Translations under genes and position numbers: made by a program
Shown: one piece after another, positions 9,781 through 48,862 of the stretch
Layout: every line of letters starts with the position of its first letter
How positions within the stretch are numbered: the stretch's first letter is position 1
IMG/VR virus record: IMGVR_UViG_3300008114_000011
Length of the DNA: 64,000 nucleotides
Strand: one strand, 5' to 3'
From: a virus
Lineage: Duplodnaviria > Heunggongvirae > Uroviricota > Caudoviricetes
Notes under the pieces: generated by a model
What the model was told of the DNA's origin: nothing
Database searches by the model: none
What the model saw: the letters and a program-made list of their open reading frames with translations, nothing else

Positions 9781-9810
9781 AGTTTGAGTAGTCAATTAAC
9801 TACTCAAACT
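9781..9810. terminator. hairpin between convergent genes
   Basis: AGTTTGAGTAG-tcaattaa-CTACTCAAACT flanked by A-run / T-run. Confidence 0.45.
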
Positions 9811-10344: not shown

Positions 10345-10374
10345 TTCATTTATTTTTTTAAATATAATAATAAA

Positions 10375-10914
10375 TTATTTAAACTCTATAACAAACTTAA
10401 AATCATGTTTAAGTCCCACTATTTCACTTTCTGAAATTTTCTTTGAATATCTAAGTGAATTTACAGAGAAGTTTTCAGGTTTTAACCAATCTTGTTCACT
10501 ATATGTAAACATATAATAAGTAACCGAATAACCACTATCAGTTATTTTATTAGCAATTTCAAATAACTTCTTTTTATCAACCTTATCTAAAACTACATAG
10601 ATTGGTAAGTTTAATTTTTTTATATTCTTAGTTTTAATATAATCTGGATCATTTTTATAAAGGTATTCAATTGAATTTCCCATACTCAATAAATGAGCAC
10701 CTTTATCATTTGAATTATCAAAACTAGACTTTGATGTACTAACTAAATCACCTTCTTCAAAATTCAATTTAATCAATTTAACGCTTGGGTGGTTAAATGT
10801 AAACCTTCCTGGTGATGAATAGATAATAGCATCTGGTTTTATATTATTAAGTTCTTTTACTAAAGAAACTAAACTATCATTTGATAGTGACTCATATGTT
10901 TGTAAATATCTCAT
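10375..10914 (-). CDS. hypothetical protein (N-term MRYLQTYESL)
   Basis: ORF. Confidence 0.55.
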   Translation of the reverse strand: MRYLQTYESLSNDSLVSLVKELNNIKPDAIIYSSPGRFTFNHPSVKLIKLNFEEGDLVSTSKSSFDNSNDKGAHLLSMGNSIEYLYKNDPDYIKTKNIKKLNLPIYVVLDKVDKKKLFEIANKITDSGYSVTYYMFTYSEQDWLKPENFSVNSLRYSKKISESEIVGLKHDFKFVIEFK

Positions 10915-11210
10915 TATTCTTCATCATTATTTTCTGGTATCATATTACCTAAAGCATTAAAAATCTGAATACCATCAAAACCTTCAGTTCTTAATACATG
11001 ATAGAACTCAGCAAACTCTTGAGTTGAAAAATCTCTATTACCAAACTCAGCTTTAAATCTTTCGATAATTTCGGATGTTTTATCATCATTGATTACATTT
11101 TTCTTTCTTAAAAAATTGTCTAACTCTTTAGTTCTATCTGAACGTCTTTCATTTTCTTGATATGTTCCTCTATCACGTCCATAATTTTCAAATGTTTTAA
11201 TATTCTTCAT
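10914..11210 (-). CDS. hypothetical acidic small protein (N-term MKNIKTFENY)
   Basis: ORF; 3' ~40 nt duplicated at 16934-16970. Confidence 0.5.
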   Translation of the reverse strand: MKNIKTFENYGRDRGTYQENERRSDRTKELDNFLRKKNVINDDKTSEIIERFKAEFGNRDFSTQEFAEFYHVLRTEGFDGIQIFNALGNMIPENNDEE

Positions 11211-11258
11211 AATAATTTTTATTTTCTTTATATATTAAAAAGTAATTTTTATTTTTTT

Positions 11259-11266
11259 TATATTTG
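11259..11266 (+). promoter_or_regulatory. Bacteroidetes-type -7 box TAnnTTTG
   Basis: TATATTTG upstream of 11292. Confidence 0.4.
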
Positions 11267-11291
11267 TAGTATAAATTAAAAACGAAAAGAG

Positions 11292-11528
11292 ATGGCTGAT
11301 AAAACTCCAATGGAACAATTGATTGATAAGATTGATTTATACGATAAAAATGGTGGTATTAATATGTTTACATTAAAAGATGTTTTACAATCTTATCTTA
11401 AAATAGAGACTGAATATTTATCTAATTTAAAACTAGAGAAAGTAGAGAAGGTCAAGGAGGAGAAAAAACACCGTTGTCCAGAGTGTGGTAGATATAACTC
11501 AGGTACTTGTAATTGTTGGTTCTCTTAA
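11292..11528 (+). CDS. hypothetical protein, paralog of 1534..1986 N-domain with C-terminal zinc ribbon (CPECG..CNC)
   Basis: paralogy; TAnnTTTG box at 11259. Confidence 0.55.
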   Translation: MADKTPMEQLIDKIDLYDKNGGINMFTLKDVLQSYLKIETEYLSNLKLEKVEKVKEEKKHRCPECGRYNSGTCNCWFS

Positions 11529-11559
11529 TTGACTTCGTTAAAAATAAAACTGGAATAAT

Positions 11560-11823
11560 ATGAAAAGAATACTTTTAGGAATAGCAATCGGTATAACCGT
11601 AATCACTACATTATCAATGACTATTAGTGGTGCAACGAATGATAATAGATTTGGTGGAAACAGTGGTGTTATGTTAACTGTACCTGCTAAACCAACTTCG
11701 ACGGTATATGTAGGATACGATCAATTAAATAAATATCTACAAAAGGGATATCAAGTACAACAAGTAGTGACTGGTGATTATAATGAACCAAGAAATCATA
11801 GTTTCTTAATGGTTAAATATTAA
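11560..11823 (+). CDS. small secreted/membrane protein (signal-peptide-like N-terminus)
   Basis: hydrophobic N-terminus MKRILLGIAIGITVITTLS. Confidence 0.5.
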   Translation: MKRILLGIAIGITVITTLSMTISGATNDNRFGGNSGVMLTVPAKPTSTVYVGYDQLNKYLQKGYQVQQVVTGDYNEPRNHSFLMVKY

Positions 11824-11856
11824 AAGATTTTGGTGATTATTGTAAAAATATTACTA

Positions 11857-11950
11857 TATTTGTTTTAGTCAGGTGGCGGAATTGGTAGACGTTATTAGAG
11901 GTAAATCCATGTAGGTAAAATCGAAAGGTTCTCATACAGGTTCGAGTCCT
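11857..11950 (+). tRNA. tRNA-like gene (long-variable-arm type; GGCGGAATTGGTAGAC D-arm, GGTTCGAGTCC T-arm)
   Basis: acceptor AGTCAGG/CCTGACT pairing, canonical D and T arms; anticodon arm not resolved by eye; TAnnTTTG box immediately upstream. Confidence 0.5.
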
Positions 11951-12125
11951 GTCCTGACTACGAGGTTCTAACTATGTGTGGTTTTGTGTATTACATAGGG
12001 TGAGGTTTAGTAAATACCATTTATTGAATAAAAAATACACGCCAGGGCGGAAATGTAACTTAATACAACTGGGTTGACCTTGATCAGGTGTTACGTGAGT
12101 TCAAATCTCAATCTGTCCACTAAAT

Positions 12126-12215
12126 AGTCAGATCGTCTAATGGTAGGACGGCTAGATGACTCAGATACTGATTCTGAAAATTTTGCTTATATAGGTTCGA
12201 ATCCTTTTCTGACTA
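12126..12215 (+). tRNA. tRNA-like gene (D-arm CGTCTAATGGTAGGACG, T-arm GGTTCGAATCC)
   Basis: acceptor AGTCAGA/TCTGACT pairing; long extra arm; anticodon not resolved. Confidence 0.45.
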
Positions 12216-12224
12216 CGAACATGG

Positions 12225-12449
12225 TTGCTAAATAATATGAAAGACGAAATTAGAAAAATCATTGAGAGTGGTAATAATACTGATGATATTGTTGATAATA
12301 TATTAGAGTTATTAAAGAATAAATCAATAGTGGTTTATGATACTCGAGATAATATTGAATGGAAAAAAAATTTAAAACATATATTATTAGATAATAAAAA
12401 GTATGTTTTATATCCGAATAGAGAAAGAATTATAATTACTTGTGTATGA
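12225..12449 (+). CDS. hypothetical small protein
   Basis: ORF directly after tRNA-like gene. Confidence 0.4.
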   Translation: MLNNMKDEIRKIIESGNNTDDIVDNILELLKNKSIVVYDTRDNIEWKKNLKHILLDNKKYVLYPNRERIIITCV

Positions 12450-12506
12450 AGGGTAACTTCATAGATGAAATTAAGTTTGTGGGTATAACAGATTAAAACC
12501 CTCGTT

Positions 12507-12672
12507 AGTCAGGTGGCGGAATATTAACATCCCCGTTCTAGTTGTAAAAATAATGTGGTTAGAATCCACTACGGGGACAATGTTAATTTGGTAGACGCAC
12601 GAGAAGTACAATCGACAAGGCGGCCCTATAAACGGGAACGAGTGTGTACAGGTTCGAGTCCTGTTCTGACTT
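12507..12672 (+). tRNA. tRNA-like gene interrupted in the D-loop by a ~66-nt inverted-repeat insertion
   Basis: GTCAGGTGGCGGAAT[insert]TTGGTAGACGC...GGTTCGAGTCCTGTTCTGACT; insert ATTAACATCCCCGT...ACGGGGACAATGTTAAT. Confidence 0.4.
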
Positions 12673-12674
12673 CT

Positions 12675-12992
12675 ATGAGATCTATTAAAAAGGTCACCGA
12701 ATTATTTTATTTGGTGAATGAAAAAAATGATTATTCCGGTGAATACGATATAGAAATATTGTCAGAGATTACAGGGGAGGATTTTGATGATGAATCTATT
12801 GGAATATTTACAATAGATTCAAACAATACAATCGATGATGATTTTATATCAATCCGTCGTAAAACGATTTCAAGTGAACCATTTTTCTCTGAGGAGAAGA
12901 CAATATTCTATGAAGAGATACATCGAATAAGTATGAACGAATATAAGACATATTTAAGAGATAAGAAGATAAGTGAATTATTAAAAAAATAA
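12675..12992 (+). CDS. hypothetical protein with variant tail (RDKKISELLKK); ORF-track start 12555 overlaps tRNA-like gene
   Basis: internal ATG at 12675 after tRNA 3' end. Confidence 0.45.
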   Translation: MRSIKKVTELFYLVNEKNDYSGEYDIEILSEITGEDFDDESIGIFTIDSNNTIDDDFISIRRKTISSEPFFSEEKTIFYEEIHRISMNEYKTYLRDKKISELLKK

Positions 12993-13038
12993 TATGAGAG
13001 ATTTATAATAATTGGGTTTATAGTGTGTGATTTTTTAT

Positions 13039-13046
13039 TATATTTG
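13039..13046 (+). promoter_or_regulatory. Bacteroidetes-type -7 box TAnnTTTG
   Basis: TATATTTG upstream of 13063. Confidence 0.4.
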
Positions 13047-13062
13047 TTATAAAAGTATCTAA

Positions 13063-13542
13063 ATGAAAGTAATATTTTTAGACATAGATGGCGTTCTTAA
13101 CCTTTGTTACGAAGGTAGAGATGAATATGGATCACTATTTCATCCACACTTAGTAGACAATCTAAAACGATTGATTGATGAAACTGGTGCTAAGATTGTT
13201 ATAAGTAGTACTTGGCGTTTAAGTGGGTTAGAAATAATGAAAGAAATGTGGATTAAAAGAGGTTTACCAGGTGAGGTTATTGGTATAACTCCAAACTTTA
13301 TGAGACATTATGGCACAACTTTATGTAGAGGAAAAGAAATAGACGCTTATCTTAAAGAGAACAAAGATATTACGAGTTATTTAATCTTAGACGATGATAC
13401 AGATATGGAAGAACACCAACTACCTTATTTCGTAAAAACATCTGGTAATAAAGATCACGAAGATTGTGTTGATATTGGTTATGGTTTGACAAGAATCTGT
13501 ACGGATAAGGCAATAGAAATACTAAATAACTTAGAGTTATGA
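13063..13542 (+). CDS. HAD-superfamily phosphatase
   Basis: motif I FLDIDGVL near N-terminus, motif II VISSTWR; TAnnTTTG box at 13039. Confidence 0.65.
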   Translation: MKVIFLDIDGVLNLCYEGRDEYGSLFHPHLVDNLKRLIDETGAKIVISSTWRLSGLEIMKEMWIKRGLPGEVIGITPNFMRHYGTTLCRGKEIDAYLKENKDITSYLILDDDTDMEEHQLPYFVKTSGNKDHEDCVDIGYGLTRICTDKAIEILNNLEL

Positions 13543-13578
13543 ACTCGAATCTGATTTAAAACATTCTAAAGAAATTAA

Positions 13579-13956
13579 ATGTATAGAGAGTTCAAAAAAG
13601 GAGAAACATACCACGTAACATCAATCAGAGTTGATGGTACTGAAGGCTTTAGTATATTTAGACCCAACTCAACACAAAATGTATTCGACTCTATAATAGA
13701 TTGCCAAAGCTTCTCTAATATGAATAACCACTGGCACAAAAATAGTGTTGTATTCATTAGAAAATCAGATGGGGCCAACACTTACCCCTGGACATTAGGT
13801 GAAGGTACTTCTGTATGGAATAGACCAACTCGTCTTGCGACCGAACAAGAAAAACTAATATTAGATTCTGTACTACAAAGAGACGAGGCTCTAACAACTG
13901 CTGAAATTAGAGATATAAAGATTAATACCATTCTAAGTAAAAATGAAAAAAATTAA
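13579..13956 (+). CDS. hypothetical protein with decayed family tail (EIRDIKINTIL...)
   Basis: ORF. Confidence 0.45.
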   Translation: MYREFKKGETYHVTSIRVDGTEGFSIFRPNSTQNVFDSIIDCQSFSNMNNHWHKNSVVFIRKSDGANTYPWTLGEGTSVWNRPTRLATEQEKLILDSVLQRDEALTTAEIRDIKINTILSKNEKN

Positions 13957-14281
13957 AACCTGGTTCATTTATAGAACATATAAATTATTTTATAATGCAC
14001 CTGCTCCTAAATTTAAAATAGGTGACTCTGTTGTAACAGATGGTTATCTTAATACTAATGGTTATAAAATTGAAGGTGAAATAATCTCTATGAGATATAA
14101 TAAGCATGATAATATGTGGTTATGTGTAGTTAAGGATAATACACCATTTGAAAATAATCATACAACCAGTATGGGTTATGAATTTGACATTGATTTTCTA
14201 ACACTTACATTTCAAGAAGATCAATTACTACCTAGTAAATCTTATATTAGAAATAAAAAATTGGAAGAGTTAGGTATTTAA
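13943..14281 (+). CDS. small protein with RNKKLEELGI tail
   Basis: family tail. Confidence 0.6.
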   Translation: MKKIKTWFIYRTYKLFYNAPAPKFKIGDSVVTDGYLNTNGYKIEGEIISMRYNKHDNMWLCVVKDNTPFENNHTTSMGYEFDIDFLTLTFQEDQLLPSKSYIRNKKLEELGI

Positions 14282-14299
14282 ATAATAATAAATTAATAA

Positions 14300-14866
14300 A
14301 TGAAGTTTGAAACTGAACATTATAAATATTTTACATATTTATTGAATAAATATTTAATTTTAAAGGAAAAGTTCAAAGAAATATCTAATAGGGATTATAA
14401 ATTAAATATACTATTAAATCAAAAATATAGTGATATAGATGGAGATATTTCACAGTTAATTGATTTGATTGATAATTTATATGATGATTTGGATATAAAT
14501 AATTTGAATGAGAAAGTTTTATCTTGTATAGATTCACATATGGTAAAATTATCACACTTAATTAGTATTAATTATGGTAAGGGTGGCATTAGAACATCCT
14601 TGGAACGTGAATTGGATGGATATGCTGATAGAAATTTATGTGTATCTCCTGGTTTAACTGATATATCAAAATCAGGTGTCATACCAGCTAATTATTCAAA
14701 TGGAACTGGTGATGTACAAGAAATTATATATGCTACACATATATCAGGTGGTATGGATTCAACATTAAATATGCCTAATAGAATTGTCTTAGATAAATTA
14801 TCATATATTGATGGTGTCTTATTCAAATATAAAGGAATTTATAAATTAAGTAGTGATGGAAAATAA
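14300..14866 (+). CDS. hypothetical protein
   Basis: ORF. Confidence 0.5.
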   Translation: MKFETEHYKYFTYLLNKYLILKEKFKEISNRDYKLNILLNQKYSDIDGDISQLIDLIDNLYDDLDINNLNEKVLSCIDSHMVKLSHLISINYGKGGIRTSLERELDGYADRNLCVSPGLTDISKSGVIPANYSNGTGDVQEIIYATHISGGMDSTLNMPNRIVLDKLSYIDGVLFKYKGIYKLSSDGK

Positions 14867-15116
14867 ACTAAGTATTGGAGACTTCGTCAAATATAAATCT
14901 CATCCAAGTATATCACATTTCACTCGTAAATATCATAGAGGTCAGATAATCGATATCATAGAACCTTATACATGTCCTCATACCGGATCTCCTGAACCAG
15001 GTTCGATAACCATAGTAAGAGAAGATGGTTCTATAAACACAGACTATCATTATGTATTCGAATTAGATAGGGAGAAAATGAGGGATGATAAACTAAAGGA
15101 ATTAGGAATATGTTAA
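14853..15116 (+). CDS. small protein with RDDKLKELGI tail
   Basis: family tail. Confidence 0.65.
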   Translation: MMENKLSIGDFVKYKSHPSISHFTRKYHRGQIIDIIEPYTCPHTGSPEPGSITIVREDGSINTDYHYVFELDREKMRDDKLKELGIC

Positions 15117-15388
15117 AAGATATTATGACCGCAAAGCTGATTGCCAAGGAAGACTACTTCCTAACGCTCGACCTGGGATATAAAAATCCCACCCCCAACA
15201 AGGTGCTCACGAGAGGGAAGATCTACGAGTGCGAGGACATCTCCGGGACATCCCCTGATGATTTCCCTGATTATGACAAGTACTACAAGGTGATCGGCGA
15301 CGACGGAAACCGTCTGACCCTTGGCAAAGGAAGGTTCTTCTCCATAGAAGAGACGAGAGAAATGAAGCTGAAAGAAATTGGACTATGA
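15110..15388 (+). CDS. family member with REMKLKEIGL tail, strongly GC-rich codon usage
   Basis: family tail; GC-rich island. Confidence 0.65.
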   Translation: MLKDIMTAKLIAKEDYFLTLDLGYKNPTPNKVLTRGKIYECEDISGTSPDDFPDYDKYYKVIGDDGNRLTLGKGRFFSIEETREMKLKEIGL

Positions 15389-15872
15389 AACTCAAGATAG
15401 GAGATTGGGTCTTGCCGAAGAACCACATACGACAAAGCCCGCACATCAAAATGAAGGTCATAGACACGAGGGTCCTTTATTTGATATTAGATTAGTTGGT
15501 AATTCAATTATGTTTAGACTGAATCCTAATAGTAGAATTAACGATTTAGTTGAAACTATTGGATTCAAAATAAATAAACTATTAATTGATAACATTGCAT
15601 CAAAGAGTAGATTAGAAGTATTGGAATTCAGAAAAGGAAATATTTCAATCAAACTGGAAGCTACTAATTTTGGGAATAGATATGATTTTTTAATAAGTGA
15701 AGATGTTGAATACTCATATAATAGAAATGATATTGAAAAAAGAAGAGATCCAGGATTTAGATATACTGGATCCAGATTAGTCGGTACAGATACCAAAATC
15801 GATTATGGTTATATTAAATATGATTCATTTACATTAAATCTAAGTTCTTCACAAACTGAACCAGATTTTTAA
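15378..15872 (+). CDS. chimeric ORF containing PLFDIRLVGNSIMFRLNPNS segment; coding status uncertain
   Basis: ORF track; no family tail; mosaic. Confidence 0.3.
   Translation: MDYETQDRRLGLAEEPHTTKPAHQNEGHRHEGPLFDIRLVGNSIMFRLNPNSRINDLVETIGFKINKLLIDNIASKSRLEVLEFRKGNISIKLEATNFGNRYDFLISEDVEYSYNRNDIEKRRDPGFRYTGSRLVGTDTKIDYGYIKYDSFTLNLSSSQTEPDF
15385..15495 (+). pseudogene. truncated family member (MKLKIGDWVLPKNHIRQSPHIKMKVID..., homolog of 6697..6948 N-terminus)
   Basis: 36-codon ORF matching GDWV..KPHIKM+IIE then running out of frame into a segment copied from 8832..9032. Confidence 0.4.
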
Positions 15873-16003
15873 ACTATTATAGAAATAATAAAAAAAACCT
15901 TTAAAGGAGAATTGAGAGATATTAAAATCAATCAACTGATGAGTTAATTGAAAAAATTTATTATCTTTGAGTAAGTTTTGTTATTTAAATAAACATAAAC
16001 ATA

Positions 16004-16216
16004 ATGAAAAAGTTAATTAAAGAATATGAGAAGCTCAATCCTGGGTGTAAGATTAAGTACATACCTGAAAATTTTGCTTCTATTGAAATTTATAATAGTG
16101 GTGGATTAATTGCTATATTAGAGCCATTTGAATTGAGAGTGGAAGTGGAAAGAATGGTGAAAAATAAAGCTGAAGTTCGTGATAAAAAACTTAGTGAGTT
16201 ACTTGGAGAAAATTAA
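16004..16216 (+). CDS. small protein with RDKKLSELLGEN tail
   Basis: family tail variant. Confidence 0.55.
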   Translation: MKKLIKEYEKLNPGCKIKYIPENFASIEIYNSGGLIAILEPFELRVEVERMVKNKAEVRDKKLSELLGEN

Positions 16217-16308
16217 AACTAACGGTTATGGAGATATAAAGATTAACAACATTATAGAAACTAATTGAAAAAATTATTATCTTTGATGTGTAAATTAAAA
16301 CCACCAGA

Positions 16309-16638
16309 ATGGCATCATCCAGAAAACGAAGACTTAAAATTAAAAAAGGTGAAACTCATAAGAGTATAGAAATTAAATATTGTAAGCCAGAAATATCTAT
16401 ACAACATACTCGTGAATATTCAAAGATATTTGTTGAATGGGAAGATAAAAACGAAAAATCAGAAGATCTACGTAGAGAAGGTAAATACCATATAGTGTCA
16501 TATACTTATAGAAATAAACAAGAGTTGGATGATAATATCCAAAAGATCTCCGACTTAAAGAATATATTCCCATATCTAAGTATAAAATCATCACTTATTA
16601 AGTATTTGAAAACTCTAAGACCATTATCATATGTTTAA
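16309..16638 (+). CDS. hypothetical basic protein
   Basis: ORF. Confidence 0.4.
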   Translation: MASSRKRRLKIKKGETHKSIEIKYCKPEISIQHTREYSKIFVEWEDKNEKSEDLRREGKYHIVSYTYRNKQELDDNIQKISDLKNIFPYLSIKSSLIKYLKTLRPLSYV

Positions 16639-23728: not shown

Positions 23729-23932
23729 ATGGACCAACAAATGAATATTATATGTATAGCTGAAGGTACTTACAAAATAACTAAAGGCAAGACCTACCAA
23801 GTAAACGCACATTCAACTCACCAATATTGGATCATAGATGATGAAGGTCATATGCAATTGATAGGTAAAGACTTTTTCAGAACACAACAAGAAATAAGAG
23901 AAGAGAAGTTAAATGAACTTGGAATAATCTAA
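23729..23932 (+). CDS. family member (NIICIAEGTYKITKGKTYQV, REEKLNELGII)
   Basis: family motifs. Confidence 0.65.
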   Translation: MDQQMNIICIAEGTYKITKGKTYQVNAHSTHQYWIIDDEGHMQLIGKDFFRTQQEIREEKLNELGII

Positions 23933-23945
23933 ATTTTACTAATAA

Positions 23946-23971
23946 AATACTAAAATCCGCACGTTTTTTAG
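23946..23971 (+). repeat. 26-nt element, orientation A
   Basis: copy 4. Confidence 0.8.
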
Positions 23972-23980
23972 TATTTATTT

Positions 23981-23988
23981 CTTATATT
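23981..23988 (+). promoter_or_regulatory. -7 box within conserved promoter TTATATTTGTATAAACTAAA (copy 2)
   Basis: identical 20-mer at 22779-22798. Confidence 0.45.
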
Positions 23989-24012
23989 TGTATAAACTAA
24001 AAATAAACAACC

Positions 24013-24177
24013 ATGATAACCTTATTCAAAAAACTATTCAATAAAGATTGTAATCACAAGTGGGAACTTGTACAAAACGATAAAAAACTAAATATCAAAG
24101 TCCACCAATGTGACAATTGCAATAAAAGAAAATTAAATGTATCAACATCATTCGGTAATGAAGTAATTGAATTATAA
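24013..24177 (+). CDS. 54-aa zinc-ribbon-like protein (below ORF-track cutoff)
   Basis: ATG 24013 sits ~25 nt after TAnnTTTG box at 23981; CNHKW..HQCDNCNKRK. Confidence 0.3.
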   Translation: MITLFKKLFNKDCNHKWELVQNDKKLNIKVHQCDNCNKRKLNVSTSFGNEVIEL

Positions 24178-24500
24178 TCTTAAAGGTTAGATACAAACCT
24201 AATCAGCGTCCATCTCCATAATCCAATAGGAGGCAAATATATCTAACCTTCAATGAAACTAAGGCATTGAGCCAAGATGCTGTTAGTGTGCGTTATTTAT
24301 TAGTAGAATGGCTTGAGGGCAACCCTATTATCGAATGTTTAGAGTATTGGAGTAATCTACCTAAATACGAAGGTTTTAAAATAGAACACACTATTTGTCG
24401 TATTACTAATGCACACTAACGTATCGGGGCTTTGCGTAGTAGTCCTTAGTAGAAACTTAAAATTAACCACGACACTTGATAGGGCTATTACACAAAGCCC

Positions 24501-24731
24501 TTGTTATGTGCCGTTAAATTTCACAAAATGAGATACGAAGAAAAAATTATCGAACACACAGAAGAAGAAACAGACTTCTTACCACTCAAAGAAGCAATAG
24601 TGAATATCGAATTTTCTCAAGGTGACTTGATTGAAATGAGAGATATTTTAAGACAATTTAAGCCTAATTTATGGGCAAAAGGATTGTTGTCAGATATAGA
24701 AGCCACACTCGAAAAGGTGTCGGTGTATTAA
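24501..24731 (+). CDS. hypothetical small protein
   Basis: ORF between two GC-richer non-coding segments. Confidence 0.35.
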   Translation: MLCAVKFHKMRYEEKIIEHTEEETDFLPLKEAIVNIEFSQGDLIEMRDILRQFKPNLWAKGLLSDIEATLEKVSVY

Positions 24732-24871
24732 TGGCCCGTTTTGCGGTTTTGTGTTAGGCTACGAAGCCTTGGCATTGAGCGGTCGAGCAGCTTGCACAAA
24801 ACCGCTGTTATACGCTGGCACGGGTAATTTAGTAGGAACTTAATTTGAAACACAAATAAAAATCAAAAGCA

Positions 24872-25174
24872 ATGGCAACAGTAATTTATGAAATACCAAA
24901 CTCCGTAAAGGAAATGTTTGAACAAGGCGAAAATAGTTATCGCATTATTGACTATTCAATACAGGAAATGGATAACATCCAAAGTATGCAACATTTCCTT
25001 GACTGTATAGGTGCAACAACGGATAATATCGAAACAGATGATGGAACGCAAGTAGTAGTAATTCATCCCGATTTTGACCACAAACTTGTAATTGATAGTG
25101 GTGGGTTGGGTGATTTTTATTCTCACGGTTATGACGTAACTCTCTATTCGGAAACGGTCAGTAGTGCTTGTTAA
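24872..25174 (+). CDS. hypothetical acidic protein
   Basis: ORF. Confidence 0.4.
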   Translation: MATVIYEIPNSVKEMFEQGENSYRIIDYSIQEMDNIQSMQHFLDCIGATTDNIETDDGTQVVVIHPDFDHKLVIDSGGLGDFYSHGYDVTLYSETVSSAC

Positions 25175-25188
25175 ATATAAAAAACATC

Positions 25189-25398
25189 ATGAAAGATTAC
25201 AAGAAAGGTGATGAATTCACATCTAAAAACTCAGGGACTATTTCAACAATAATAGAGATTGCATCGGAAGATGTCCTAAACTGGTACGGATTAGAAGGTC
25301 CAGCGTTCTGGATAAATGAGAATGGAAGCTCTCAATTAAGACTTTGTACCATAGAAGGCCTCAAAGAACTATTCATTATACCCGAAGAGAAAAAATAG
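25189..25398 (+). CDS. hypothetical small protein
   Basis: ORF (probable start MKDYKKGDEF). Confidence 0.4.
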   Translation: MKDYKKGDEFTSKNSGTISTIIEIASEDVLNWYGLEGPAFWINENGSSQLRLCTIEGLKELFIIPEEKK

Positions 25399-25474
25399 GT
25401 TTCTGACTTCGTGGAAAAATAGTGAACCTTCGTTAACTCAGGTACTAAACTTCGTTTAGAGTTTCTAAAGAAAC

Positions 25475-25500
25475 TACTAAAATCCGTGCGGATTTTAGTA
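25475..25500 (+). repeat. 26-nt element variant (TACTAAAATCCGTGCGGATTTTAGTA, near-perfect palindrome)
   Basis: copy 5. Confidence 0.7.
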
Positions 25501-25584
25501 TCATTAGCTTGTGATATACAGATAAAATCATTATCTTTATACTCACAGAGTGAGAGTATAAAATACTAAAACAAAATAAGAGAT

Positions 25585-26004
25585 ATGAACCTTGACACTA
25601 TAATAAAATCACAAATAATCGGATTAGAAATCGGAATAATAAACGTTATCAAAACAACCGAGTTTAACGTACACGCAATCGCAAACGAATTATCCGATAT
25701 ATTAGGTAAAGAAAATATCCAAATATTCAAAGTTGGTACCCACACAGGTATATCAATACCAGAAATCGTTAAACAATTCGATAACTTCGACTACTCTAAA
25801 CCAATCATAATCGTTACAAACAAAGACGCAATCTATAAACATATCATACCAAGAAACGGTAAAGTAATTCAATCTAAATGCCCAAAAACAGGCTTCCTAA
25901 TCCTAAACGATGTTAAATGGAAATTCACACGTTTCCAATCTACTTTCGAAGGAACAATAACTCAACTAAGAAGAGATTACCAATTAGAAACACTAATAAA
26001 TTAA
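25585..26004 (+). CDS. hypothetical protein with RRDYQLETLIN tail variant
   Basis: ORF. Confidence 0.5.
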   Translation: MNLDTIIKSQIIGLEIGIINVIKTTEFNVHAIANELSDILGKENIQIFKVGTHTGISIPEIVKQFDNFDYSKPIIIVTNKDAIYKHIIPRNGKVIQSKCPKTGFLILNDVKWKFTRFQSTFEGTITQLRRDYQLETLIN

Positions 26005-26019
26005 AAAATAGGTTAGGTG

Positions 26020-26093
26020 GGTAGCTCAACTGGAAAGAGCCTCTCATTAAGAGAGAGATTAAGGTTCGAATCCTGTCCCTTCTGACCTATACT
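26020..26093 (+). tRNA. tRNA-like element, possibly degenerate or partial (GTAGCTCAACTGG D-arm, GGTTCGAATCC T-arm, candidate TAA anticodon)
   Basis: D-arm, anticodon hairpin CTCTC-ATTAAGA-GAGAG and T-arm are recognisable but the acceptor stem pairs poorly. Confidence 0.35.
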
Positions 26094-26108
26094 AAACTTC
26101 AGAGAAGA

Positions 26109-26134
26109 TACTAAAATCCGCACGTTTTTTAGTA
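26109..26134 (+). repeat. 26-nt element, orientation A
   Basis: copy 6, directly after the tRNA-like element. Confidence 0.8.
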
Positions 26135-26348
26135 TCTTCTTTAGTTCTGATTGATCCGAGCCGCCCGAAATCACCGATTAAAATTGTTAAAAACCAGGTA
26201 AAAACCCAGTGGATTTTTTACTGAAAAATGACCCTCTGGAAACGTAAGCAGGTCAAGGCTTTCCGAGAGGTGTGTATATACAAATTGGTGCTGAAAATAA
26301 GGCTACTGGTAGAGAAAATGAAATGGCGATAGAGTTTACACAAAAATA

Positions 26349-26374
26349 TACTAAAAAACGACCGGATTTTAGTA
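26349..26374 (-). repeat. 26-nt element variant (TACTAAAAAACGACCGGATTTTAGTA)
   Basis: copy 7. Confidence 0.65.
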
Positions 26375-26389
26375 TGTTGAAAAATAAGG

Positions 26390-26415
26390 TACTAAAAAGT
26401 GTGCGGAATTTAGTA
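26390..26415 (-). repeat. 26-nt element variant (TACTAAAAAGTGTGCGGAATTTAGTA)
   Basis: copy 8. Confidence 0.6.
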
Positions 26416-26571
26416 TTAACTAAAAGTGAAGTATGACTTTGAAATCGTTCCATTCAAATTAAATCAAAACTAATTCAAATTCTATAAACGTAAAATTGTT
26501 CACATTACACTATAATTTATTTTTATTATTCGTATAGAGTTCTTATATTTATTAAATCAAAACGAAAATAT

Positions 26572-26913
26572 ATGAATGTATTTGATCTAAAAAACAAAAA
26601 GGGATATTTCTTTGACGGATTTACACTTCTTTCTGGTTATATCGGTGGTGGTGAATCAGTATATAGTAGATACTTATCAGGTAAAGTTATTTATGACAAA
26701 CCAGTTTGGTTTTCCAGAACTTGGAGACACGGTTATAAATACGATAATTGGGATTTTAGTAATTTTGAATTCATACCATACGATACATTCAAAAACTTAG
26801 AAACTTATCTTAAATTCATTGAGAAAGCAACCTACAATGAAATTAAAATGTACTTCAAATTGAAAGAGGTAATGAAGTCAGAAGACTTTATAGAATGTGG
26901 GATTAAATTATAA
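26572..26913 (+). CDS. hypothetical protein
   Basis: ORF. Confidence 0.45.
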   Translation: MNVFDLKNKKGYFFDGFTLLSGYIGGGESVYSRYLSGKVIYDKPVWFSRTWRHGYKYDNWDFSNFEFIPYDTFKNLETYLKFIEKATYNEIKMYFKLKEVMKSEDFIECGIKL

Positions 26914-27609: not shown

Positions 27610-28019
27610 CGAAGCTTTCATCAATTTTATTACTTATAACGTCTGATGATAAATTATCGTTTTAATGTTGTTTATCATTTGTTATGTGTAGGTTTTTAGT
27701 TAATTAAAAAAATATAAATATGAAAAAGATAATAGAAGAAATAGATTTTTTGTGGAAAGGTGATAGAAGTATGTTAATTACTATGTGGTTATGTATATTG
27801 TTAGCACTTGTAGTTTTAACTGAACTTGGTTTTAACATATACTTCACTTTTTTTAATTAATGTTAAGAAAACTTACACATAACGGTTGAGAATATAAGCA
27901 GTTATTAACGAAAACTTAAATTGAAACACAGAACTTAATTATTAACAGACAACTTTTATTTGAAAGTAATGAAATAATTGCTTATATTTTTTGTTAGTTT
28001 TAGTATTTAATTTTAATTC

Positions 28020-28274
28020 ATGATTATGAAAAAAACAGATTTGATTTCTTATTTAAAAATATTAGGTGGTTTATCACTTACATTTCCATTATCTCATGCG
28101 TTTTTTGCACTTGACTTTGGGTTAGTAAAAGGTGGATTTATAGCACTTGGTTTATATTTTTTGATGATGTTAATTGCAATACCAATGTTTAACTACCTTG
28201 AATATGGTAAATTTTGGTATTGGGTAAGTGATAAACATAGAGATAGTTTTGATAAAATTAAATATTGGAACTAA
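28020..28274 (+). CDS. small membrane protein
   Basis: two hydrophobic helices. Confidence 0.4.
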   Translation: MIMKKTDLISYLKILGGLSLTFPLSHAFFALDFGLVKGGFIALGLYFLMMLIAIPMFNYLEYGKFWYWVSDKHRDSFDKIKYWN

Positions 28275-28353
28275 CGGTTGGTTGTATATGTAGGTTTTTT
28301 AATTCTAACCTTTAATATATACTATGACTTAATAAAAAACTTGCATATACACC

Positions 28354-28803
28354 TTGTTATATACCGTAAAAATGTGGGATGGTAAAAAATTAAAATTAGA
28401 TATGAAACATAAAATAAAAACAACTCTACGAGAGTTTATTAGGGAAGAACTTGAAAAATTAGATTATTTTTCAACTAATATAGATGGACATCGTTTTGAA
28501 TTGTTGAAAGATGGTGAAGTGGTAGGTTGGACAATGTTTAGTAATGTCATTAAAAATAATAAATTCAATAATCAACCACATATAAGTTTGTGGGATTTAA
28601 TGATAAAAGAACAATATAGAAAGAAAGGATATTCTAAAATATTAATGGAAAAAGTTTTAGAATATTTAAGATACAGTGTAGATATTGTGGATTTACAGGT
28701 TATGGAACATAATAAACCTGCAGTAAATTTATATAAGAGTTTTGGATTTGAAATTTATCATAATACTGGACAAGGTGTTCTTTATATGTCAAAAAAATTT
28801 TAA
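28354..28803 (+). CDS. GNAT-family N-acetyltransferase
   Basis: acetyl-CoA motif A Q-YRKKGYSKILMEKVLEY and motif B NKPAVNLYKSFGF. Confidence 0.6.
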   Translation: MLYTVKMWDGKKLKLDMKHKIKTTLREFIREELEKLDYFSTNIDGHRFELLKDGEVVGWTMFSNVIKNNKFNNQPHISLWDLMIKEQYRKKGYSKILMEKVLEYLRYSVDIVDLQVMEHNKPAVNLYKSFGFEIYHNTGQGVLYMSKKF

Positions 28804-28920
28804 TTTTTTTAAGAAGGGTGTAAAATTTTTATTGTATATAACGGTTGAGAATATGTTTCGTTTCAATGATAAATATTCTTTGTTAGATTGCGTTTCAATG
28901 TGATCTAACGATACTCAGAT

Positions 28921-28948
28921 ATATTTAGGTTTTCTTTTTAATATATAC
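28921..28948 (+). promoter_or_regulatory. local promoter-like repeat ATATTTAGGTTTTCTTTTTAATATATAC
   Basis: near-identical copy at 29227-29258, related copies at ~28295 and ~27690, each ~25-30 nt upstream of an ATG. Confidence 0.45.
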
Positions 28949-28968
28949 TTAAAAATAATAAACGAGTT

Positions 28969-29217
28969 ATGAATAAATTAACACACCTTAAAAGATTTAA
29001 CGAGTCAGAAGAAAACTTGAATATATCTGATGTTAGTGAGAGTAGATGGAATATGATTCCAGATAGATGTGAATATAATGGTAAAATATACAGAATTCTC
29101 AATATAGAACTACAAGGTGGATATTTTACACTACAAGATTTAGAAGCAGAAAGAGGTGACATTCAAGTTTTAGATGATATAGATATGGATAAATGTATTC
29201 CAGTCTATTCTCACTAA
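28969..29217 (+). CDS. small protein with conserved N-terminal leader (..FNESEENLNISDVSES)
   Basis: leader shared with 29276..29644. Confidence 0.5.
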   Translation: MNKLTHLKRFNESEENLNISDVSESRWNMIPDRCEYNGKIYRILNIELQGGYFTLQDLEAERGDIQVLDDIDMDKCIPVYSH

Positions 29218-29226
29218 CGGTCACAG

Positions 29227-29258
29227 ATATATTTAGGTTTTCTTTTTAATATATAAAC
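29227..29258 (+). promoter_or_regulatory. local promoter-like repeat (copy 2)
   Basis: see 28921-28948. Confidence 0.45.
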
Positions 29259-29275
29259 TAAAATAATTTACAAAG

Positions 29276-29644
29276 ATGAAAGGTAAAAATAACATACAAA
29301 GTTTCGAAGAGTTTAAAGAAAACTTGAATATATCTGATGTTAGTGAGAGTAAAACTATTGGAGATATAATAGATGATAACACTAAAGATTCTAATGGATT
29401 TTTTTGGGGTGTATTTTCTGATACTATGAATTTTTTCATTGTTGATAAGGGGTTTAATGTTATATTTGAAACACCTGCGTTTTTTAATGGAAAATGGACA
29501 AATGATGTAAAAGAAGCAATGAAAAAATATGGAATAGACGACAACAAATCAAGAATGAGAACTGATAATAACATAGAAAAATTAAAAAAATCCATTAAAC
29601 TAGAATATGATTTATGGAAAATGTATAGTGATAGAACTAAATAG
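29276..29644 (+). CDS. small protein with conserved N-terminal leader (..FEEFKENLNISDVSES)
   Basis: leader shared with 28969..29217. Confidence 0.5.
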   Translation: MKGKNNIQSFEEFKENLNISDVSESKTIGDIIDDNTKDSNGFFWGVFSDTMNFFIVDKGFNVIFETPAFFNGKWTNDVKEAMKKYGIDDNKSRMRTDNNIEKLKKSIKLEYDLWKMYSDRTK

Positions 29645-29693
29645 TTTTATTCTCACTAATGGTTTGTGTATATGTATAGTTAAATTTTTTAAT

Positions 29694-29873
29694 ATGAAAG
29701 TTAAATGTATAAAAAACAGTATTGATTCAATGACAATACAAATGCCTTGGATAAAGGTAGGAGAAATTTATGAAGTAGTTGGTGAGCATTGGTCAAGGGA
29801 AGATTATTTTGCAGTAAAAGGTGAAGGCGGTTGTATTGCGTTTTATAGGAAGAGTTGGTTTGAAAAAATTTAA
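29694..29873 (+). CDS. MKVKCI-type family member lacking the C-terminal tail
   Basis: N-core MKVKCIKNS..KVGEIYEVV; internal ATG of ORF 29607..29873. Confidence 0.45.
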   Translation: MKVKCIKNSIDSMTIQMPWIKVGEIYEVVGEHWSREDYFAVKGEGGCIAFYRKSWFEKI

Positions 29874-29969
29874 TTATTCATATACGCTGTTAGCAAATCG
29901 TTTTAATGTTTGCTAACTAGATTATATCTCTAAATCAACATTAATAATTAATTTACAAATACTTAACAT

Positions 29970-30770
29970 ATGAAAAAGACAAATTATTACGAAATTTGTA
30001 ATCAAAAATTGAAGTATTTAAACTATTCAGATAGGACTATCAAGTCCTATCTTTATTATATTAATCAATTTTTAGAAAATACTAAAATACCACCAACCAG
30101 ATTAACAGCAACAGATTTCCAACAATATCTCAATAATTACAATTTTACCTCCACCTCACAACAAAATCAAGTCATAAACTCAATAAGATTCCTATACAAA
30201 GAATCACTTAATAAAAAATATGATAAGGTTGATTTTAAAAGACCTAGATCTGAAAAGAAACTACCAAAAGTAATTGATGGCGATTATATCAAATCTAAAC
30301 TTTCTAAAATAGAAAACCTTAAGCATAAAACTATACTTACTTTAACCTATTCAGTTGGTTTAAGAGTTTCCGAAATAATAAATCTTAAAATAGAAGATAT
30401 TGACTCCAAAAGAATGATTATTCATATTAAAAATGCTAAAGGTAAAAAAGATAGAATTGTACCACTTTCAGAAAACGTACAAAATCTAATAAAAATATAT
30501 TCAGAAAAATATACACCAAAAGAATATCTTTTTAATGGTCAATCCACAAACAAATATTCAATACAATCCTGTCAAAATATCTATAAAAAATATATTGATG
30601 AAAATTCATCTATACATACCCTCAGACACTCAGCCTTTACCAACCTCTTAGAAAATGGAACAGATCTAAGAATAATACAGAAAATAGCAGGTCACTCATC
30701 CACCAAAACAACAGAGATATATACACACGTTTCTAATCAACTTTTAAATAAAGTTAATCTACCAATTTAA
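29970..30770 (+). CDS. tyrosine recombinase/integrase (XerC/D-like)
   Basis: C-terminal catalytic block HTLRHSAFTNLLENGTDLRIIQKIAGHSSTKTTEIYTHV (R..H-x-x-R..Y). Confidence 0.85.
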   Translation: MKKTNYYEICNQKLKYLNYSDRTIKSYLYYINQFLENTKIPPTRLTATDFQQYLNNYNFTSTSQQNQVINSIRFLYKESLNKKYDKVDFKRPRSEKKLPKVIDGDYIKSKLSKIENLKHKTILTLTYSVGLRVSEIINLKIEDIDSKRMIIHIKNAKGKKDRIVPLSENVQNLIKIYSEKYTPKEYLFNGQSTNKYSIQSCQNIYKKYIDENSSIHTLRHSAFTNLLENGTDLRIIQKIAGHSSTKTTEIYTHVSNQLLNKVNLPI

Positions 30771-33172: not shown

Positions 33173-33889
33173 ATGAGAAATAATTTAGTAGAGATATTTC
33201 ACGATACTCAAATCAAGTCCGTGAAGTTTAATGATGGTGTTACAACACAACATTCAAATAATGAGATAGTTGGACCTTATTTATCAGTTTATAAAGGTAA
33301 TGTTAAGGTCGTTAATTTAGATACGGTATCTGCTCTTGTAGAGTTATCTAAGTCTGGTAAAACTTGTGGCTTGAATATGGCTTCGTATAAGAAACCGGGT
33401 GGTGGAGTTCGTAATGGAGCCAGAGCTCAAGAAGAATGTTTATTTAGATGTTCTAACTTAATCAATTCAATTGTAGAAGATTTTTATCCATTAGAAGATG
33501 GTACTTGTCTTTATACATCAGATGCTACATTCTTTAAAGATAAGGATTATAATGATATGGAACCGGTTGAGTGTGATATTATTACGATAGCTGCTATAAA
33601 CTTAAACAGTCGTAGTTATGATAAAGAGACTTATGAAGAGATTACACTCCAAAAGATAAGATTGATGCTTACTATCCCATCTAAACATGGTGTTGAGAAC
33701 TTGGTTTTGGGAGCTTTTGGTTGTGGTGTTTTTGGGAATGATCCCCATGTGATGTCAGAATTATTTAGAAAGGTTTTAGTTGAAGAAGGTTATTCATCTT
33801 TATATAAAGAGGTTGTTTTTGCTGTTATAAACGATCATAATTCTGTTGGTAATAATTATAGTGTGTTTTCTGATAAATTCTACTCTTAA
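33173..33889 (+). CDS. bacterial-type poly(ADP-ribose) glycohydrolase-like macrodomain protein (DUF2263 family)
   Basis: PARG signature GGG-x7-QEE (KPGGGVRNGARAQEE) plus GAFGCGVFGNDP. Confidence 0.65.
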   Translation: MRNNLVEIFHDTQIKSVKFNDGVTTQHSNNEIVGPYLSVYKGNVKVVNLDTVSALVELSKSGKTCGLNMASYKKPGGGVRNGARAQEECLFRCSNLINSIVEDFYPLEDGTCLYTSDATFFKDKDYNDMEPVECDIITIAAINLNSRSYDKETYEEITLQKIRLMLTIPSKHGVENLVLGAFGCGVFGNDPHVMSELFRKVLVEEGYSSLYKEVVFAVINDHNSVGNNYSVFSDKFYS

Positions 33890-47963: not shown

Positions 47964-47968
47964 AAGAT

Positions 47969-48826: not shown

Positions 48827-48862
48827 AGGTAATAGGTTCTTATATATATAAGTATAAAAGAA

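Follow-up and report, generated by a model that had tools for sequence, protein, structure and literature searches.

In this study, two segments (24178-24500 and 24732-24860) of a 64,000-nucleotide stretch of phage DNA (Caudoviricetes; IMG/VR record IMGVR_UViG_3300008114_000011), referred to here as the window, were analyzed. A first-pass annotation of the sequence alone had flagged them as GC-richer, non-coding islands around a small gene and as candidates for structured RNAs. It is probable that these segments are recombination-site hairpins, together with the remnants of such sites, in a phage-borne, Xer-type, integron-like cassette array whose polarity is the mirror image of that of a classical integron. 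The hundreds of copies at gene boundaries, the arrays tied to a recombinase and the breakpoints at a fixed nucleotide point to DNA recombination sites that also carry expression signals, and do not favor small RNAs (sRNAs), intron remnants or ribozymes. Such an array appears to let phages of Bacteroidota gain, lose and swap small accessory genes. A Bacteroidota host for the phage of the window is suggested by one window protein with a type-IX secretion sorting domain.

A hairpin family at gene boundaries

The flagged hairpins were members of a large and strongly covarying family. A 26-mer from the loop of the first one, the main hairpin, had exact matches in 52 IMG/VR contigs, and the aligned copies formed a near-invariant block of ~108 nucleotides (nt), TAACGTATCGGGGCTTTGCGTAGTAGCCCTTAGTAGAAACTTAAAATTAACCACGACACTTGATAGGGCTATTACGCAAAACCCTTGTTATGTGCCGTT, with unrelated sequence on either side. 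The start codons of ~25 different genes were placed at a fixed distance 3' of this hairpin, and the coding sequence beside it was less conserved than the hairpin. A profile of the 108-nt block detected many divergent copies in the same contigs, all of which lay on the coding strand and shared the ends of the block while having wholly different stems. Furthermore, a structure-based scan of the first 58 sources, with a scanner that demanded NAAC(G/A) and GTTA, returned 214 copies against 15 in shuffled sequence, 179 of them on the coding strand and 8 on the opposite strand. Over all loci fetched (numbered with an L below), 586 distinct copies of the family were counted, spread over about 200 viral contigs.

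On the coding strand, the order of a site was as follows: an R'' box (ATTGCnnATAAC), the point marked here by a vertical bar, a 4-5-nt spacer, a ~20-bp helix (arms L'' and L') with an AT-rich loop, one nucleotide and an R' box (GTTATnnGCAGT). The generic form can be written as ..ATTGCnnATAAC | G-spacer, stem, AT-rich loop, return stem, TGTTATnnGCAGT. The AAC..GTT end boxes of this imperfect palindrome had the consensus ATTGCnnATAAC ... GTTATnnGCAGT over the 586 sites and were also present in the divergent copies found with the profile. The R'' box usually overlapped the stop codon of the upstream gene, either as the TAA of TAAC or as a TAG ~10 nt earlier; the latter, an alternative stop codon, explained the upstream GTAG motif better than a REP/RAYT-like reading, which was discarded. 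A loose regular-expression map of degenerate R'/R'' cassette borders across the window was dominated by noise, with 43 hits on the plus strand and 22 on the minus strand.

Three size classes of ~48, ~88 and ~125 nt were distinguished. The 48-nt class contained an invariant 11-nt loop, TCGTTTTAATG, and the same loop was common to the smallest sites and to empty R'-loop-R'' units (window 27657-27667 and 29898-29908; L081 887-934, 1465-1512 and 7249-7296; and the site P12002L_attC1 of a Polaribacter phage), which suggests that it may be recognized in a sequence-specific manner. The loops of the 125-nt class had a median length of 72 nt and a GC content of 27%, and an ATG was located near the loop center in 177 of 202. 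For 49 of 58 long elements, the downstream open reading frame (ORF) had its first in-frame ATG inside the element, in the loop, and translation therefore runs through the 3' arm and the GTTA box, which are read in two different frames. This position of the start codons also accounts for the Pfam domains of cassette enzymes starting at residues 19-32. Unrelated cassette proteins were seen to share leaders of ~20 residues, ..ENLNISDVSES.. or ..KPxLNIPAVSGS.. (window 28969-29040 and 29277-29345; for example, L052 7608, 9030 and 9806), whose coding sequence is made up of the loop, 3' arm and GTTA box.

Covariation and the strand that pairs

The helix was evaluated in an alignment, A1, of 30 diverse short-class copies. 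Compensatory double changes were found in 11 of the 13 helix pairs, and paired cells made up 90.0% against 70.6% in shuffles, a value that none of 500 shuffles attained. The covariation score was 0.506, compared with 0.184 for shuffles and at most 0.117 for slid-register controls. The covariation support that had been named as a check on the flagged segments was thus strong for the stems of the hairpin family.

When only Watson-Crick pairs were counted as canonical, the non-canonical stem positions comprised 259 G.T/T.G against 75 A.C/C.A (p = 7.6e-25), and 63 of the latter 75 were C.A in one orientation, probably a single conserved mismatch near the base of the stem. In the R'/R'' pairs, the mismatches numbered 377 G.T/T.G against 94 A.C/C.A, where the compositional baseline ratio was ~1.8. 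One G.T(U) pair was conserved in 27 of the 30 sequences; together with the one conserved C.A mismatch, it was the only such feature of the A1 helix columns, in which no conserved bulged (extrahelical) base was present. The excess of G.T wobbles in the stems indicates that pairing is maintained on the sense strand, as judged from the sequences, either as RNA or as single-stranded DNA.

Inverted repeats that bracket each gene

The pairing of the outer boxes was found to run across genes. Over 314 comparisons, the GTTA tail of a site formed 6.28 Watson-Crick pairs out of 10 with the head before the TAAC of the following site, against 3.49 with the head of its own site and 3.30 with random heads; 54% of the tail/next-head pairs reached at least 8 of 10 when wobbles were included. 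The paired end boxes covered ~10-13 nt after GTTA and ~13 nt before the next TAAC. Because the tail pairs with the head of the next site and not with its own, each gene body has inverted repeats of its own at the two ends, the arrangement that characterizes integron cassettes. Within the flagged region, this bracketing was evident for GTTAGTGTGCGTT/AATGCACACTAAC (24282/24408) around a decayed gene of the type found in locus L005 and for GTTATGTGCCGTT/CGGTGTATTAAT (24503/24721) around a 67-amino-acid (aa) ORFan. The long-range inverted repeats of the first-pass annotation, GTTAGATA/TATCTAAC and GTTAGTGTGC/GCACACTAAC, were therefore not the helices of one RNA but paired end boxes of gene cassettes.

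The native array and its recombinase

The phage of the window carries an AT-rich hairpin array of its own, which ends at a recombinase gene, with the following parts:

27637-29917 (+): native AT-rich hairpin array, with complete sites at 27637-~27686, 27880-27996, 28272-28359, 28839-28885, 28906-29035 and 29215-29342
~29655-29892 (+): degenerate site around a 58-aa ORF, within the native array
29889-29917 (+): empty R'-TCGTTTTAATG-R'' unit at the end of the array
29918-29969 (+): attI-like terminal site, AAC|TAGATTATATCTC.., conserved to the right of AAC| in 76 related loci and fully variable to the left
29970-30770 (+; coding span also given as 29970-30767): 266-aa Xer-like tyrosine recombinase, identified with Pfam, NCBIfam and a structure-sequence alignment

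The recombinase matched the Pfam families Phage_integrase (8.4e-35) and Phage_int_SAM_4 (1.4e-13). Its best NCBIfam model was of the XerA/integron-integrase type (XerA_Arch, 2e-54), although at 184.9 bits against a cut-off of 220 bits it was not an equivalog, and the XerC, XerD and IntI models of NCBIfam all scored below their curated cut-offs (TIGR02249, 158 bits against 265). The protein was colinear over its full length with the XerA-like structure 4a8e (1.7e-38) and with XerA 5hxy, whereas its alignment with VchIntIA/IntI4 (2a3v) was split, residues 172-206 facing IntI residues 175-257 and thus falling ~48 residues short. The motifs GLRVSE, KGKKDR, HTLRHS, GHSS and IYTH resembled conserved tyrosine-recombinase motifs in a by-eye reading that did not align catalytic positions.

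Among 212 relatives of the recombinase in IMG/VR, the best 80 loci (58-83% identity, 1.0 Mb) were analyzed. In these loci, 394 hairpin sites were on the strand of the recombinase and 21 on the opposite strand, and the sites per kb from -8 kb to the recombinase start were 8, 22, 19, 22, 51, 65, 95 and 91, compared with 1-4 in the downstream bins. An attI-like sequence, AAC|TAT(N)ATATAT..., was located ~45-50 nt before the start codon of the recombinase and was conserved in 76 loci. Between arrays, only the sites and the recombinase gene were common, the cassette genes being hypervariable. A homologue of the recombinase was also encoded 2.4 kb downstream of the main hairpin in L025. In 80 bacterial loci with the closest cellular homologues (39-67% identity; 40-49% over the full length), no upstream arrays were detected, and the 10 + 30 hits in 0.7 Mb were at about background.

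Two further observations were made in these loci. In L181 (Desulfitobacterium sp. Sab5 chromosome), six AAC..GTTA hairpins at 9783-16317 on the minus strand were found beside a recombinase that is 42% identical to that of the window and is encoded on the opposite strand; the locus is probably an ordinary chromosomal integron. In addition, many recombinase genes were within 1-2 kb of a contig end (L059-L138, L146-L225), so that the repeated hairpins are suspected of breaking metagenome assemblies.

Breakpoints at a single nucleotide

All loci were compared with one another by means of high-scoring segment pairs of at least 300 nt and at least 88% identity; a first histogram was swamped by main-hairpin matches. 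Of 110 distinct homology end points, 21 fell within 3 nt of AAC| where ~0.3 were expected, a ~70-fold concentration in a 7-nt window. Moreover, 35 of 129 homology start points were in the R'' box, and just 3 points were at G|TTA. A classical attC reading, in which the crossover is at G|TT and the hairpin belongs to the upstream gene, was rejected on the basis of the start codons in the loops and the AAC| breakpoints.

Natural gain and loss of cassettes was observed in seven isolates of Polaribacter phage Freya, whose integrase is 40% identical to the recombinase of the window. These isolates were at least 99.9% identical in the compared region flanking the array and differed from one another solely in a block of small genes that immediately precedes the integrase and spanned 1704-6646 nt. 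All of the junctions read ..YWAAC|, including those of an internal deletion (Freya_8) and of a replacement by novel cassettes (Freya_6). The arrays always ended with AAC|ACCCCTATAAC..., 66 nt 5' of the integrase ATG, and it was also at this attI-like junction that isolates differed. The junctions kept the left box up to AAC although the parental boxes differed within 8 nt, and some parental sites had little beyond AAC in common. Bartlau et al. took the Freya integrase solely as a marker of possible lysogeny.

The flagged island, part by part

Between 24186 and 25176, four consecutive cassettes were distinguished (an empty one, a decayed one, a 67-aa ORFan and a 100-aa gene), 4.8-5.8 kb upstream of the recombinase and on the same strand. 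Their parts were as follows:

24186-24247 (+): vestigial, near-empty cassette, in which 46 nt of filler separate the R'-type box GTTAGATA (24186-24193) from the R''-type box TATCTAAC (24240-24247)
24263-24280 (+): orphan 3' arm (L') of a long-class hairpin, GGCATTGAGCCAAGATGC, the 5' arm and the start-codon loop being absent
24267-24419 (+): remains of a small cassette gene that lacks an ATG, with 50 codons counted from a TTG
24417-24515 (+): complete short-class hairpin of the ultra-conserved main variant, with TAAC| at 24417-24420, the spacer GTATC, the 5' arm at 24426-24446, a 34-nt loop at 24447-24480, the 3' arm at 24481-24500 and then TT-GTTATGTGCCGTT (R' tail, 24503-24515)
24528-24731 (+): 67-aa ORFan cassette gene, the small gene between the two flagged segments
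24721-24732 (+): decayed R'' box CGGTGTATTAAT of the 67-aa cassette, in which AAC is now AAT
24733-24821 (+): second hairpin site, with the 5' arm GCGGTTTTGTG at 24743-24753, a GC-rich interior of 41 nt, the 3' arm CACAAAACCGC at 24795-24805 and a T-GTTATACGCTGGCAC end (R' tail of the next cassette, 24807-24821)
24829-24851 (+): box TTAGTAGGAACTTAATTTGAAAC, 20 nt 5' of the ATG of the 100-aa gene
24872-25174 (+): 100-aa cassette gene, 96-98% identical to genes in L001 (39% GC) and L002 (33% GC)

The composition that had drawn attention to the two segments was reproduced. The GC content was 37.2% in 24178-24500 and 45.7% in 24732-24860, against 28.5% for the whole window and ~27% for both flanks; the richer block is not confined to the segments but reaches ~25400 and includes neighboring genes. 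The best reading of this island (~37% GC) is that its cassettes were recently imported from GC-richer relatives, on which account its composition stands out. No ORF of at least 60 aa was present in either segment, as had been reported, but the stretch 24261-24419 was a copy of a small gene of which L005 has the intact version, so that the description as non-coding does not extend to it. This copy and the L005 gene (74 aa) shared 72% amino-acid identity over 55 residues in an identical reading frame, the window copy having lost its 5' end and 10 codons in an in-frame internal deletion. By this comparison, a decayed protein-coding gene accounts for ~160 nt, or half, of the first segment and is flanked by R' GTTAGTGTGCGTT (24282-24294) and R'' AATGCACACTAAC (24408-24420). 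In L005, the intact counterpart of the orphan arm is ATAACGTTTTGCAACTTGGCTTAGTGCC..loop with ATG..GGCATTGAGCCAAATTGC-TGTTAGTGTGCG.

Both of the inverted repeats that had been listed were recovered, namely GGTTAGATA (24185-24193) with TATCTAACC (24240-24248) and GCGGTTTTGTG (24743-24753) with CACAAAACCGC (24795-24805). The former coincides with the near-empty cassette, which has an analogue in the empty R'-loop-R'' unit at 29889-29917. As for the short blocks said to be shared by the two segments, GGCATTGAGC did occur twice (24263 and 24771), while CTACGAAG was a single copy (24759) whose counterpart at 24365 reads ATACGAAG. The second copy of GGCATTGAGC (24771-24780) was seen inside the GC-rich interior of the second hairpin, and the same 10-mer begins the orphan 3' arm at 24263; this may be the trace of a nested or illegitimate recombination event.

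The 67-aa gene had no match in Pfam or PHROG and no relative among the viral contigs. Its R'' box CGGTGTATTAAT differed from CGGCACATAAC, the perfect complement of the R' tail, by four transitions, all of which preserve pairing through G.T wobbles on the plus strand, and by one inserted T. The ends of the second hairpin resembled other members of the family (for example, L037 1317-1424), and homology of the window to L001 and L002 began at 24792-24797. The R'' box of the 100-aa gene, GTGCTTGCGTATAAC in L002, was truncated in the window to GTGCTTG|TTAAAT (25164-25176). The box TTAGTAGGAACTTAATTTGAAAC looks like a promoter or translation-initiation signal, and a related motif, AAACTTAA, was the most frequent word in the hairpin loops. 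As a genome-wide promoter, TTAGTAGRAAYTT was discarded: with two mismatches it was barely enriched (36 against 27 expected), and its third exact copy (55931) was intragenic. Scans for sigma-70 promoters and intrinsic terminators between 22 and 28 kb revealed no enrichment, and a by-eye reading with the Bacteroidota -33/-7 consensus gave a loose fit only.

Regarding structure, 24170-24530 folded better than shuffled sequence (z = -5.6 on the plus strand and -3.1 on the minus strand), while 24725-24875 alone folded no better than shuffles (z = -1.0). The flagged elements are conserved and structured insofar as the hairpins 24417-24506 and 24733-24810 belong to the covarying family, but an identity as sRNA, intron remnant or ribozyme was not borne out. 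No Rfam family matched within 24178-24860 even at E <= 10, and Rfam scans of the whole window at gathering thresholds and of 23900-26700 at E <= 10 returned only tRNAs (26015-26084 and 12126-12215). A blastn search of 23900-26700 against 50,697 GenBank phage records gave zero matches.

Proposed mechanism

From these data, the following scheme may be put forward. The mobile unit would start with the G that follows AAC|, take in the hairpin, R', the gene body and R'', and end at the next AAC|; the hairpin thus precedes its gene, which makes the unit the mirror image of a classical integron cassette. In the ~125-nt class, the downstream gene would take its start codon, and probably its expression signals as well, from the loop, which may act as a promoter or initiation region, and with the start codon in the loop the cassette would carry its own initiation region along. 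In a circularized cassette, pairing of the complementary R' and R'' would restore a long R helix adjacent to the L helix, and these two helices could serve as recombinase-binding arms around an unpaired spacer, in the manner of a folded dif, attC or CTX-phage attP. The Xer-like recombinase at the 3' end of the array would be the enzyme that cleaves AAC on the folded sense strand, with single-stranded sense DNA as its putative substrate, and would swap cassettes from site to site as well as with the attI-like site that immediately precedes the recombinase gene. With cleavage at AAC on the sense strand, the reaction would run as a mirror image of that in classical integrons. The R box ATTGCnnATAA (..TGCnnATAA) resembles the XerC/D arm of Escherichia coli dif, ..TGCGCATAA. 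Xer/dif-type sites are duplexes of 28-30 bp in which two 11-bp arms surround a central region of 6-8 bp, and a dif-like geometry (R helix, spacer of 4-5/1 nt, L helix) would arise here only if the hairpin folds.

Comparison with known systems

The similarities to integrons are extensive. Both systems consist of co-oriented arrays of small, hypervariable genes that are mostly of unknown function, each gene being accompanied by an imperfect palindrome with AAC...GTT ends, an unpaired spacer and a variable loop. In both, the outer box pairs with a box at the far end of the same cassette, a tyrosine recombinase gene occupies one end of the array, separated from the cassettes by a unique conserved site that any cassette can abut, and cassettes are gained and lost at a fixed nucleotide. 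In contrast, the phage recombinase is Xer-like, with 266 aa, and lacks the ~48-residue IntI insertion between the beta-hairpin and HxxR; its gene is found at the 3' end, in the orientation of the array, and the position and orientation of the attI-like site differ as well. The crossover is at AAC| 5' of the hairpin, which travels ahead of its gene; pairing is favored on the coding strand, without extrahelical bases; many sites hold the downstream start codon and N-terminal codons; and the replicon is a phage. Since four features that define integrons (the IntI domain, extrahelical bases, signs of bottom-strand folding and a G|TT crossover) were lacking, the phage system is not classed as an integron.

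The closest functional analogues within phages are the promoter-early stem-loop cassettes (PeSLs) of T4-type phages (Arbiol et al. 2010, PMC2839356; Comeau et al. 2014, PMC4122927). In PeSLs, too, modules of a stem-loop and an expression signal flank small novel ORFs in hyperplastic regions and mark the ends of insertions, deletions and replacements between relatives. PeSLs combine an early promoter with a terminator stem-loop and belong to T4-like myoviruses of Proteobacteria and cyanobacteria. Unlike the present sites, they are short, are thought to use homologous recombination without a dedicated recombinase, and have no AAC/GTT boxes, no cassette-specific pairing of ends and no fixed single-nucleotide crossover; no sequence relation between the hairpin family and T4-type PeSLs was found.

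Previously, Qi et al. 2023 (PMC9892861) used integron-trained predictors to call attC sites, two per phage, in phages that included Polaribacter phage P12002L; they linked these sites to no recombinase and read them as parts of bacterial integrons carried by virulent phages, in the form of clusters of attC sites lacking an integron integrase (CALINs). One of these sites, P12002L_attC1 (TGCTAACGG..GGCTAAACGG-TCGTTTTAATG-CCGTTTTAGCC-ATTGTTAGGC), has the ends, the architecture and the loop of the 48-nt class and shares its ends and loop with the window site 27637-27686; this site failed in the IntI1 assay of the same study (PMC9892861). DNA methyltransferase genes neighbor the P12002L sites, as they do many cassettes here, whereas the present sites occur in arrays of up to 17 by a dedicated phage recombinase and with the opposite cassette polarity. 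A literature search of incomplete coverage retrieved no paper on a recombinase-linked system of mirror polarity. Gene modules bounded by inversely oriented Xer-type sites are known as the pdif modules of Acinetobacter plasmids, and in the CTX phage the Xer enzymes recombine a hairpin that is folded from one DNA strand (single-stranded attP). Both systems rely on the host XerC/D and 28-bp duplex sites, and neither is known to have long arrays with a resident recombinase or a gene initiation region within the site.

Alternative explanations and points against the proposed cassette array

Several alternatives were weighed against the cassette array. In the first place, the hairpins might act mainly in mRNA, as cis-acting clamps that close intercistronic regions and display the AT-rich initiation region of the next gene, with its start codon, in a large, single-stranded loop, and perhaps also stabilize or terminate upstream transcripts, gene shuffling being a by-product and the recombinase unrelated. 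We consider this unlikely, both as an account of the hairpins and in what it implies for the recombinase. It is in keeping with the sense-strand pairing held by G.U-type wobbles (the single G.U pair in 27 of 30 copies), with the ATG near the center in 177 of 202 long-class loops and the first in-frame ATG in the loop in 49 of 58, and with an IF3 homologue encoded in the window at 58500-59030 (+; IF3_N 4.7e-19, IF3_C 8.5e-26). Bacteroidota are generally without Shine-Dalgarno-led initiation and use unstructured A-rich leaders instead, as is known from translation studies in Flavobacterium, and this too counts in favor of a clamp. Nevertheless, a clamp leaves unexplained why the R'/R'' pairing spans the gene and is not internal to a site, why homology breaks at one nucleotide (AAC|), why a conserved terminal site and a recombinase mark the end of the arrays and why 48-nt mini-sites and gene-free R'-loop-R'' units exist. 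A role in mRNA and a role in recombination could coexist. Lower still is the probability, in our estimation, that the hairpins are PeSL-like linkers, that is, terminator or promoter modules whose adjoining genes are shuffled by homologous recombination in co-infecting phages with no dedicated enzyme. This would fit the near-identity of the 108-nt main hairpin in at least 52 contigs with differing genes on both sides, the lesser conservation of the neighboring coding sequence and the promoter-like boxes beside the hairpins. It is at odds with the Freya junctions, which are exact to AAC despite divergent parental boxes, with the ~70-fold concentration of breakpoints, and with the fact that most stems within an array are unrelated and offer too little homology for general recombination.

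That the sites are ordinary bacterial attC sites, a CALIN derived from a host integron and recombined by the host IntI on the bottom strand at G|TT, seems very unlikely. The AAC...GTT ends, the imperfect palindrome, the unpaired spacer and the variable loop would all suit it, predictors called such sites in P12002L, and the predicted attC2 of that phage did recombine with IntI1 (PMC9892861). On the other side, it was the family-type site, P12002L_attC1, that failed in the assay; there are no conserved extrahelical bases and top-strand pairing is favored; the breaks are at AAC| 5' of the hairpin and not at G|TT; the linked recombinase is without the IntI-specific insertion; and upstream arrays were absent from the 80 bacterial homologue loci, where hits were near background. 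Finally, the proposal that the segments are genes for independent structured RNAs (sRNAs, ribozymes or intron remnants) is scarcely credible to us. The strong folding of the first segment (z = -5.6) and the conserved hairpin sequence would speak for it, but there is no Rfam hit at E <= 10, the fold consists in part of decayed coding sequence and cassette end boxes, and the elements are always at gene boundaries in coding orientation, with the next start codon inside or just after them.

Some observations weigh against the cassette array itself. Two of the flagged sites of the window are decayed (AAT for AAC, and the truncated R'' at 25164-25176) and may be inactive, so that the block may now be fixed in place. 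The wobble bias toward the sense strand and the start codons centered in the loops suit an mRNA-level role equally well, and both roles may be combined. The invariance of the letters NAAC(G/A) and GTTA was partly built into the scanner. Among the 52 main-hairpin loci, which are short, the recombinase was seen in one (L025), and the co-localization of recombinase and sites could be produced by conserved synteny alone, the 80 contigs being those of related phages. The recombinase may instead be a lysogeny integrase, in line with what Bartlau et al. assumed for Freya, or a dimer-resolution enzyme. Moreover, the hairpin joined to the shared 100-aa gene is a different one in each of three contigs (the window, L001 and L002), the break falling between the 3' arm and GTTA and not at AAC|, and the ultra-conserved main hairpin is upstream of ~25 different genes; homologous exchange within conserved hairpins, in the manner of PeSLs, or a second crossover position is therefore also required.

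Cassette content and implications

The 196 cassette proteins formed 181 clusters and had a median length of 83 aa. Those that could be identified included four classes of DNA methyltransferase, an Rv2179c-like exoribonuclease and DUF4326, among others, which is consistent with the cassettes being a rapidly changing repertoire of counter-defense genes. On balance, though with less assurance than for the identity of the flagged segments, we favor the more general proposal that Bacteroidota phages, from ~44-kb Polaribacter siphoviruses to uncultivated phages of >300 kb, carry an integron analogue of their own. It would comprise an Xer-derived recombinase, hairpins on the coding strand, self-expressing cassettes of mirror polarity and a stock of methyltransferases and ORFans, probably for counter-defense, that is exchanged across lineages of differing base composition.

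Integrons have been regarded as a bacterial invention around one specialized integrase. If the proposal is correct, a second cassette platform, Xer-like and resident in phages, would imply that the capture of genes by hairpin sites evolved more than once or diverged deeply. It would also provide a concrete mechanism for the "hyperplastic" regions of small ORFans in phage genomes and explain the movement of counter-defense genes, such as orphan methyltransferases, between unrelated phages. Software trained on integrons misses these arrays or labels them as CALINs. The cultured Freya phages already present natural cassette variants with single-nucleotide junctions, and the system is thus directly testable.

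Other features of the window

A palindromic repeat of 26 nt, TACTAAAATCCGCACGTTTTTTAGTA, occurred eight times in the window, on both strands and between genes, where zero copies were expected (20246, 22737, 23036, 23948, 25475, 26109, 26349 and 26390). It looks like a terminator and is an element distinct from the hairpin family. The ORF-free stretch 26140-26560 had been described as carrying two copies; these are indeed there, both diverged (26349 and 26390), and a third, exact copy lies just upstream (26109).

Genes with interrupting inteins and LAGLIDADG domains, together with homing-endonuclease genes of the GIY-YIG/NUMOD and T5orf172 types, were located at 59137-62276 (-), 53754-54587 (+) and 48863-49846 (+), and constitute a second layer of selfish elements in the same genome. 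The Rfam tRNA at 12126-12215 (+; 40.3 bits), which ARAGORN did not call, has ~19 extra nucleotides in the anticodon region and may contain an intron or be otherwise unusual. In addition, a set resembling NAD salvage was encoded at 47190-51462, with proteins of the NAPRTase family and similar to ribose-phosphate diphosphokinase; a TIGR02452-family protein was encoded at 33173-33886, and the window had one microbial-PARG Pfam hit that was not assigned to an ORF. A protein with the RNA-repair domain HAD_SAK_2 was found at 13063-13539.

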